From Narcine bancroftii (Eukaryota), in the NCBI RefSeq assembly GCF_036971445.1, contig NC_091475.1, positions 189,906,001-189,970,000 of the forward strand: DNA of 64,000 nucleotides. Reading direction: 5' to 3'. The position numbers and the translations under genes were made by a program. The notes under the pieces are model-generated. The model was not told the DNA's origin. It worked only from the letters and a program-made list of their open reading frames with translations, and did not search any database. Positions 2,697 through 4,170 of the stretch are shown piece after piece. The stretch's first letter is position 1; every line of letters begins with the position of its first letter.

Positions 2697-4170
2697 TCTT
2701 CTTTCAAATGACAGATGAACTATACAATGTTTCTGTTCACGCGCCAAATGGGACTGGGATGCTAGGAAGATTTGGTAGTTAGAGGATACATTTTTAAGTT
2801 ATATTTTTGCACAGTCTGTGAGTCTATGAAACTTTCTGTGGAGCCTGTATCAATCAGGCACTTAGTCGAATGTCCGTTTACCTTCACCATCACCATTGAG
2901 TTGCTGAGCTGGTGAGGTCTAATCTAATTGAGGACCAGCGATGCCAGGTTGCTGGAGATGCCATGTTCTACCCTCAAGTGGCCCACTTCATCCTGAGTCA
3001 ACCTGTGCAGGCAAGATGGCCGCCCTCCTTCCTCCTCTGACGATGATGATGATGTTGAATTCAAAATCGGGCGACTGCAAGACGGCCACCGAGCCTTTTC
3101 GCGCCATTTCCGTAGGCAGCAGGTTGCACAGCAGGTGATCTTTGATTAGTCCGGGGCAGATGGCTTGGGACTGGAATCAGATCCAGGAGTGGTACAGCCC
3201 ATGGACTTCCCCGGACCTCCCTTCACACAGCAGACCCTAGCCCAATGTCCCTTCTTCCTACAGCTGGAGCACACCAATTCTTTGGCCAGTCAGCGGGCAT
3301 GGGGGTGCTGACCTTTGCTGCATGAAAAGCACTCCCAGGCTCGGGAAGCAACAGCCGTTAGAGCGGGGACTGCCGGTCCTTGGAGATGCTCATCCGAGAG
3401 CAAGAGTTCACTGGCCTCAAGGTTTTTGTTCTCAAGACTGGCTTGTTCCAGTGATTTGGCCAGCTCGACATGGCTAGCGAGGTCCTTCCTTCCCGACTTG
3501 AGTAGTCTCTGCCTCACATACCTCGAGCAGACTTCTGCGACTAGAGCGGATCTGTTCATCTTCCTGGATGCAGCCCTAAGTGGCCTCATACCTGCACTTC
3601 TTAGCCAGCGTCCACAGATCCAGCAGGTAGTCAACAATCAACTCTCCAGGCCGTTCGCAGTGTAAGGCAAGCCAGTACCTTGCTGGGACCTCGTTTGGTG
3701 CCTTTGTGTATCAGGTCTTCAGTGAACCGATGGCAGCCTCGATGGTGGCCTCATACATCGGGCAGTCTCGGATGACTACCCTTAAGATGGATGCCGACAT
3801 CTGGAGTTCGTCTGTATGGAAGACGTCCCTGGTCACGTTCAGGTAGGCCTGGAAGCAATCTAGCCAATATGCAAACTGCTCCTCTGTGTCGGGGGACTGG
3901 GAGACTATTAAGAGCATACTGGACTTGAGTAACACCTTTATCTTTGTTTGTAAGCTAATAAAATTGTAGCATAGATAAAAGCTCACACTCGACTGGAGGG
4001 AGAACTAATACTTATTAGCTTACAGCACAGGTAGGGTTCATGAACGGGCTTCATAGGGGTTCTGGGTTTAGAAAGGAAACCAGGGTTACATATGGGTCCC
4101 CAGGGGAGGGTGCGGAAGGCGGGACCATTCATCAGTACAGGACACTTCTAGTGAATCCCAGTTCACTACA
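2697..4170 (-). mobile_element. Ty3/Gypsy LTR retrotransposon remnant (5' LTR, gag, protease), cut by the L1
   Basis: LTR 3965-4170 (TGTAG..CTACA); gag fragments (ORFs 3711-3986, 3290-3637; RQRLL..ELAKSLEQA; degenerate zinc knuckle CFSCSKGQH); protease VKVNGHSTKCLIDTGSTESFI near 2825-2890; homologous to element at 20105-22420. Confidence 0.87.
3965..4170 (-). repeat. 5' LTR of Gypsy element 1 (206 bp)
   Basis: TGTAG/CTACA inverted termini immediately upstream of gag. Confidence 0.85.

Follow-up and report, generated by a model that had tools for sequence, protein, structure and literature searches.

The locus analyzed here raises the question of how a Gypsy retrotransposon can begin minus-strand DNA synthesis when no tRNA-type primer site follows its 5′ LTR. 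The window, i.e., the whole stretch of 64 kb that was analyzed, contains part of such an element on its minus strand; the remainder of pol, together with the 3′ LTR, is located beyond its left edge. Judged from its sequence, this is an old, L1-interrupted Gypsy element of a chromodomain-less YLDN clade located outside the Tf1/sushi group. Its features, all on the minus strand, are as follows (negative positions lie left of the window):

1..2702, minus strand: L1-like LINE insertion, which we take to be L1 from a reading of the sequence by eye; it cuts the element within the protease at 2702, and the Gypsy sequence resumes at about -326
2703..3947, minus strand: short leader (~23 nt), broken gag (stops, frameshifts) and protease with a DTG motif, from the translation; aligns to positions 1-1450 of the family copy
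3948..3964, minus strand: one-base spacer (3964) and predicted primer-binding site (3963-3948), of which 3949-3961 is still paired; no TGG
3965..4011, minus strand: LTR stretch from the arm to the LTR end
4012..4024, minus strand: LTR arm, where the self-primer is predicted to have its 3′ end; the poly(A) hexamer lies here in the family, and this copy is short of two A's
4056..4063, minus strand: predicted transcription start, ~30 nt past the TATA-like box, from the spacing and by analogy to the family-B fossils described below
4086..4092, minus strand: TATA-like box, TATGTAA here and TATATAA in most family copies, with a putative role suggested by the motif
3965..4170, minus strand: 5′ LTR, 206 bp, TGTAG...CTACA, 11.7% divergent from its own 3′ LTR
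4171..4175, minus strand: left half of the 5-bp TSD, AGCTG; the right half is AGATG, with 1 mismatch
about -2798 to -3008, minus strand: 3′ LTR, left of the window, with a PPT just before it

The 5′ end of one and the same L1-like family adjoins Gypsy sequence of the window element's family (hereafter family A) both at 1-2702 and at a second locus, L247. The window also contains arrays of a 21-bp tandem repeat at 8591-9395 and 6520-6668, and a CA microsatellite at 5386-5472.

The preliminary description of this DNA had reported a 13-bp inverted repeat between LTR and leader, and the lack of a TGG-type PBS after the 5′ LTR. Both observations hold. The sequences TGTAAGCTAATAA (plus strand, 3949-3961) and TTATTAGCTTACA (plus strand, 4012-4024) are exact reverse complements without extension on either side, and they constitute, over the 64 kb of the window, the sole perfect inverted repeat of at least 13 bp with a loop of at most 100 nt. 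The LTR (206 bp, 4170-3965) is followed, on the minus strand, by ATTTTATTAGCTTACA, from which TGG is absent, and the LTR arm has its 3′ end 47 nt inside the LTR end. Folding of positions 3925-4060 (minus strand) recovered the stem with z = -2.7, equally stable structures being obtained for 4/200 shuffled sequences. The arm had also been said to overlap an AATAA poly(A)-like signal. In the family, the arm ends in AATAAAA; the 5′ LTR of the window is short of two A's, which are retained in the 3′ LTR of the same element (AATAAAA). Thus, the 13 bp of the window copy are a decayed remnant of a 16-bp pairing, which joined an LTR arm ending in AATAAAA to the primer-binding position one base past the 5′ LTR.

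Family A is large, with 6,161 first-look candidates in the genome, and the pairing is conserved within it, a point on which the preliminary description had made its own reading depend. Among 37 junctions in 30 loci, selected by leader similarity, 13 paired at 16/16 positions and 36 at 13/16 or more, and none presented TGG (0/37). The assignment to a YLDN type is correct for the family, as the RT motif FPYLDNVT was found in other copies, but the motif itself is absent from the window because the element is cut at 2702 by L1.

A check for covariation between the two arms, as had been suggested, was run on 18 elements, 4 from the Narcine genome and 14 out of 80 metagenome loci. These 14 were picked among the loci with a visible LTR-leader junction, most duplicates of a family being set aside; the remainder had no junction or were further copies of the same families. 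Seventeen elements, representing about 15 families, were parsed. In all 17, the site paired over 11-19 bp with an arm located 35-86 nt inside the end of its own LTR, and each pairing exceeded its own shifted-position null (null maximum 6-11, mean 3-4). The paired letters differed between families, and no site started with TGG (0/17). The spacer after the CA was of 1 nt in 15/17 elements, the exceptions being the decayed window copy and L141. Within one family, a compensatory T-A/G-C swap distinguished L099 from L101. The element left unparsed (L135) paired by eye over 11 nt, including one G-U. As the arms are AT-rich, their complementarity might be attributed to chance, but a pairing kept in 17/17 elements with different letters, and above each null, refutes this explanation, to which we give practically no weight. 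Also, the family-specific covariation argues against a half-tRNA primer.

A search of the genome with the RT revealed a young sister family, family B. Its LTR measures 240 bp and is unrelated in sequence to that of family A. The LTR pairs are mostly 99-100% identical, ORFs reach about 1,500 aa, and a protein on record for Narcine bancroftii matches the RT region identically. Pfam domains follow the order PR-RT-RH-IN, the chromodomain being absent. Predicted folds show a main stem plus a variable inner hairpin, with a predicted stem pairing of 0.9 or more for 14/15 pairs; in the Tf1/sushi group, three duplexes form a "pretzel" at the PBS. Between gag and protease, family B carries a tandem repeat rich in Ala (TDTPGADATAAAAAA-like), whose length varies (residues ~320-430 of the L053 protein). 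Young family-B insertions were also observed in satellite arrays (L056, L057, L061).

The HIV-1 5′ poly(A) hairpin holds AAUAAA in a stem close to the RNA 5′ end, in an RNA that keeps its tRNA PBS. By analogy, the stem described here might only hide the poly(A) signal of the 5′ LTR, priming being ensured by some host RNA, by a half-tRNA or by a protein. The pairing is indeed possible only at the 5′ LTR, and it is strongly predicted in family B. Also, the hexamer A(A/T)TAAA ends the arm in 9/17 elements, including all three ray families. However, it lies unpaired in the loop in two elements (L071, L074) and is missing from the arm in the remainder, whereas the start of the stem is kept at +2. 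Thus, the fixed feature is the position of the primer and not the hexamer. Moreover, the site tracks the LTR of each family, which no fixed host RNA could follow, and the clusters of ends presented below would be left unexplained. For these reasons, we consider this explanation quite improbable. Poly(A) occlusion, which had been proposed as a function of the hairpin, is not the conserved one; it may be a side function of the stem, and is at most secondary. The likeness to HIV-1 is limited, as the partner strand is here the PBS itself and pairing of the hexamer is not universal.

Family B gave access to products of its own reverse transcription. In one copy (L070), flanked by an exact TSD, the 5′ LTR stops at ...AATAAAA and runs on as reversed U5. 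At this arm/T-TGTAG junction, the LTR arm (to base 192) is joined directly to the first minus-strand bases. A pattern search of the genome detected 254 such junctions in family B, versus 1,146 normal junctions and 0 matches to a reversed-pattern control; among the 5′ ends of family B, about 18% belong to fold-back or deleted products. We read 171 junctions (the first 100 of one listing and 70/129 of another, plus within-locus repeats), 3 of which were unparsed. Class I (n = 90) is made of U3-R to base 192 and reversed U5, then mostly of an internal piece and the 3′ LTR. Class II (n = 41) consists of 433-bp fold-backs with U3 at both ends. Class III (n = 31) presents the whole LTR, the spacer and a backwards copy of R, then mostly internal sequence. 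The 5-bp TSDs of class II were exact in 31/41 copies and within one mismatch in 34/41, and wherever the two ends of a copy could be seen in the other classes, TSDs were found (13/13 class I, 5/5 class III). These TSDs indicate that the products arose before integration and were inserted by integrase. In family A, 7 pattern matches yielded 6 real junctions, and a class I copy ends at 159, versus a predicted cut between 160 and 161.

Several side observations concern these products. The 433-bp family-B elements with two U3 ends (e.g., L153, L154, L156, L166) could be mistaken for MITEs. A recurrent class, which is either one family or a recurrent error, combines LTR 1-192, about 22-30 nt of reversed U5, and forward U5 to the LTR end (L172, L215, L226, L260, L284-286, L308, L323, L306). 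Tandem arrays of junction-bearing deleted elements were also detected (L217, L246, L232; G000 C11 145898160-146976512).

These junctions could be DNA-level fold-backs, produced by plus-strand template switching at a hairpin, by later recombination or by assembly artefacts, in which case they would be silent on the primer. Over 15 nt, arm/T-TGTAG is identical to the reverse-complemented normal LTR-PBS junction, so that any fold-back yields such a junction, and no short-read contig among the matches listed bridged a class I junction. However, simple inversions running on into the leader were found in 0/171 junctions read, the TSDs are exact, and the two arms differ from each other in 30/41 fold-backs. 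The Inr floor described hereafter needs an RNA 5′ end as template, and the covariation is independent of the junctions. We thus hold this origin to be very improbable.

Beyond covariation, the new element brought by these by-products is that both ends of the primer were mapped from them. The mapping rests on family B; in family A, no primer-side end was clean. The statistics leave out ten "210" junctions as well as further rows lacking an internal joint, and the search pattern hides left ends past 169 and right ends past about 234. On the primer side, 20 of the 21 unique events joined to internal sequence (shared junctions merged) ended at LTR 136-164, and 12/21 at 136-144 (binomial P about 1e-10 vs uniform). 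This floor corresponds to TCATTCC (A141), an Inr located 31 nt past a TTAAAG box, and lies about 37 nt upstream of the family-B arm, which starts at 178. The earlier expectation of a TSS at the LTR arm, as in Tf1, is thus not supported: the fossils and the TATA/Inr spacing point, under the usual spacing rules for TATA, Inr and poly(A) signals, to a start ~37 nt upstream of it. A TSS upstream of the arm is what a primer drawn from an internal arm predicts. Seven class III sense pieces start upstream of 135, one internal-joined at 103 and six not internal-joined at 14-131. Three candidates were discarded: L247, bordered on its left by an L1 end, as evidence for the TSS; L252, a plain deletion; and a loose end rich in A, close to LTR position 203 (2 Logan contigs from one run), too weak to be used as evidence for an RNA end.

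On the strong-stop side, the median end was 193, versus a predicted cut between 192 and 193, and 41/54 ends fell at 179-203. An uncut template would give ends at 134-156, where none was found (0/54). However, 20/54 ends enter the arm (179-192), past a clean cut, which counts against our best explanation, as such ends need either a strand transfer beforehand, the addition of T's, or a template left uncut. Stalling at a hairpin in the DNA could likewise centre the ends on 193.

These ends bear on another form of self-priming, in which the template stays uncut and the primer is the arm of the RNA 3′ end trimmed to the hexamer, or is supplied in trans by a second RNA or by a short transcript terminated in the 5′ LTR. 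The ends entering the arm would fit such a primer, as would the complete U3 found on the primer side in most fossils (classes I and II), the 3/41 fold-backs that join two different subfamily alleles, and the polypurine tract directly upstream in two products (L225, L251), as 3′-end priming would give. Nevertheless, the primer-side U3 can also be explained by annealing to plus-strand strong-stop DNA, a 3′-end primer offers no reason for the Inr floor (20/21 ends at 136 or later), and the strong-stop ends expected at ~141 from an uncut template are lacking from the 54 examined. Arm-to-arm mismatches, a weak test for the footprint of a 5′ or 3′ primer origin, showed no enrichment in R (22/1148, versus 95/5511 in U3). 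We judge this form of priming unlikely, but it keeps some weight on account of the arm-entering ends, the hairpin-stall option, the upstream sense starts, the PPT products, the lack of R enrichment and the mixed alleles.

Self-priming, as had been proposed for this element, is well supported by the covariation and by the junction fossils, and we are highly confident that the clade primes itself in one form or another. The primer is probably a fragment from the 5′ end of the element's RNA, with a predicted cut where the arm ends in 3′. The best reading of our data is a Tf1-like self-priming, but from an internal arm and with a ~52-nt primer. The site begins one base past the CA of the LTR, and its complement is an arm inside the LTR that ends in AAA. 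Transcription would begin ~37 nt upstream of this arm, at ~141 in family B. The RNA would then fold and, by analogy to Tf1, the element's RNase H would cut it just after ...AATAAAA (predicted between 192 and 193 in family B), leaving the ~52-nt primer. As the fossils suggest, RT would extend this primer over the spacer and U5 into a strong-stop DNA of ~49 nt, which would transfer to the RNA 3′ end via 15-20 nt of R (hexamer to poly(A) site). The fossils are also consistent with a plus-strand synthesis that can copy the whole primer; there would be no stop signal at the PBS edge, and the tail of 52 nt would anneal wrongly to R. The rate of by-products given above would be explained by a primer that exceeds the PBS in length, with a 37-nt overhang and 52 nt of homology to R. 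Copying of the primer to its own 5′ end fits Tf1, for which one report indicates that about half of the cDNAs carry a PBS copy, the primer being copied into the cDNA 3′ end (PMC11042837).

Membership of the Tf1/sushi group, which the preliminary description had raised with an RT phylogeny as the check, was rejected on three grounds: the chromodomain is absent, the RT falls outside the chromovirus clade, and the mRNA is predicted not to supply its first nucleotides as the primer alone, the arm lying further inside. With Pfam, a chromodomain was detected in 0/40 relatives, versus most sushi-type controls. A quick IQ-TREE search with few outgroups (only sushi-type rows from fish and Gmr1-like rows, Tf1 not being among them) separated the 29 rows of the YLDN clade from the 14 chromovirus rows, each set on its own branch (SH-aLRT 100 and 99), and the clade shares about 31-34% identity with sushi-type elements over RT-RNase H. 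Several members present YLDD in place of YLDN. Affiliation to Ty3/Gypsy is indicated by TG...CA LTRs, TSD, PPT and PR-RT-RH-IN order, and the best solved match is the Ty3 RT. Other rays, a catshark, Trichuris and a sea anemone yielded relatives, as did many metagenome contigs; IMG/VR yielded none. Two clade proteins (P0013, P0018) are filed under bacterial MAG names, probably through eukaryotic contamination. Matches to SH3_Tf2-1 were mostly Gmr1-like, and one was sushi-like. The same genome also contains a degenerate sushi-type chromovirus (L325) and many elements with the integrase domain upstream of RT (L327-L343), which we take to be Gmr1-like. Cigr-1, which has similar sizes, or a MolGy clade may be the YLDN lineage.

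To our knowledge, experimental proof of self-priming exists only for the Tf1 group of fission yeast. Repbase entries reportedly mention self-primed Gypsy families. In the literature outside Repbase and subscription journals, we found no description of the priming of this clade or of such by-products, and among Gypsy elements self-priming is treated, as far as the reports consulted indicate, as a Tf1/sushi trait. Tf1/Tf2 (S. pombe), Tj1, Tosmo and Tf1/sushi chromoviruses, like this clade, are described in the cited reports with a PBS complementary to their own 5′ LTR and no tRNA (PMC10085805, PMC4600332). However, the Tf1 self-primer is the extreme 5′ end of the mRNA, whereas the arm of the clade is predicted ~37 nt downstream of the start. 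The clade also differs by its separate RT position, the lack of a chromodomain, an arm usually ending at the poly(A) hexamer, and a loop of only 35-86 nt. In the plant Copia TAR lineage (Houba, Osr-1) and the moss Tcn1 chromoviruses, self-priming has been predicted from PBS-LTR complementarity (PMC6317226); these belong to another superfamily or clade, and the cited report appears to offer a prediction only, without mapping of primer ends. The metazoan non-chromoviral Gypsy elements Cigr-1, MolGy, Mag, CsRN1 and Saci2 share a single ORF, short LTRs and a 5-bp TSD with the clade, and Mag and Saci2 elements have been reported, in the sources cited, with tRNA PBSs (PMC3286476, PMC12471100).

On balance, we lean towards the view that self-priming arose in a large clade of metazoan Gypsy elements separately from Tf1/sushi, by means of a capped 5′ fragment of ~50 nt cut right past its own poly(A) hexamer. 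One stem would yield the primer and maybe also silence the 5′ poly(A) site, at the cost of about 1 in 5 insertions being primer-copy by-products, including the 433-bp two-U3-ended fold-backs inserted by integrase, and these by-products would map both TSS and cut site from genome sequence alone. Such insertion by-products constitute a means of reading reverse-transcription intermediates from assemblies, and the young family B opens the way to a direct test in native RNA. If this view is true, it would explain why annotation based on the PBS misses elements of this clade, and these elements would escape silencing by 3′-tRNA fragments. A second, widespread self-priming clade in animals would also mean that independence from tRNA arose more than once.
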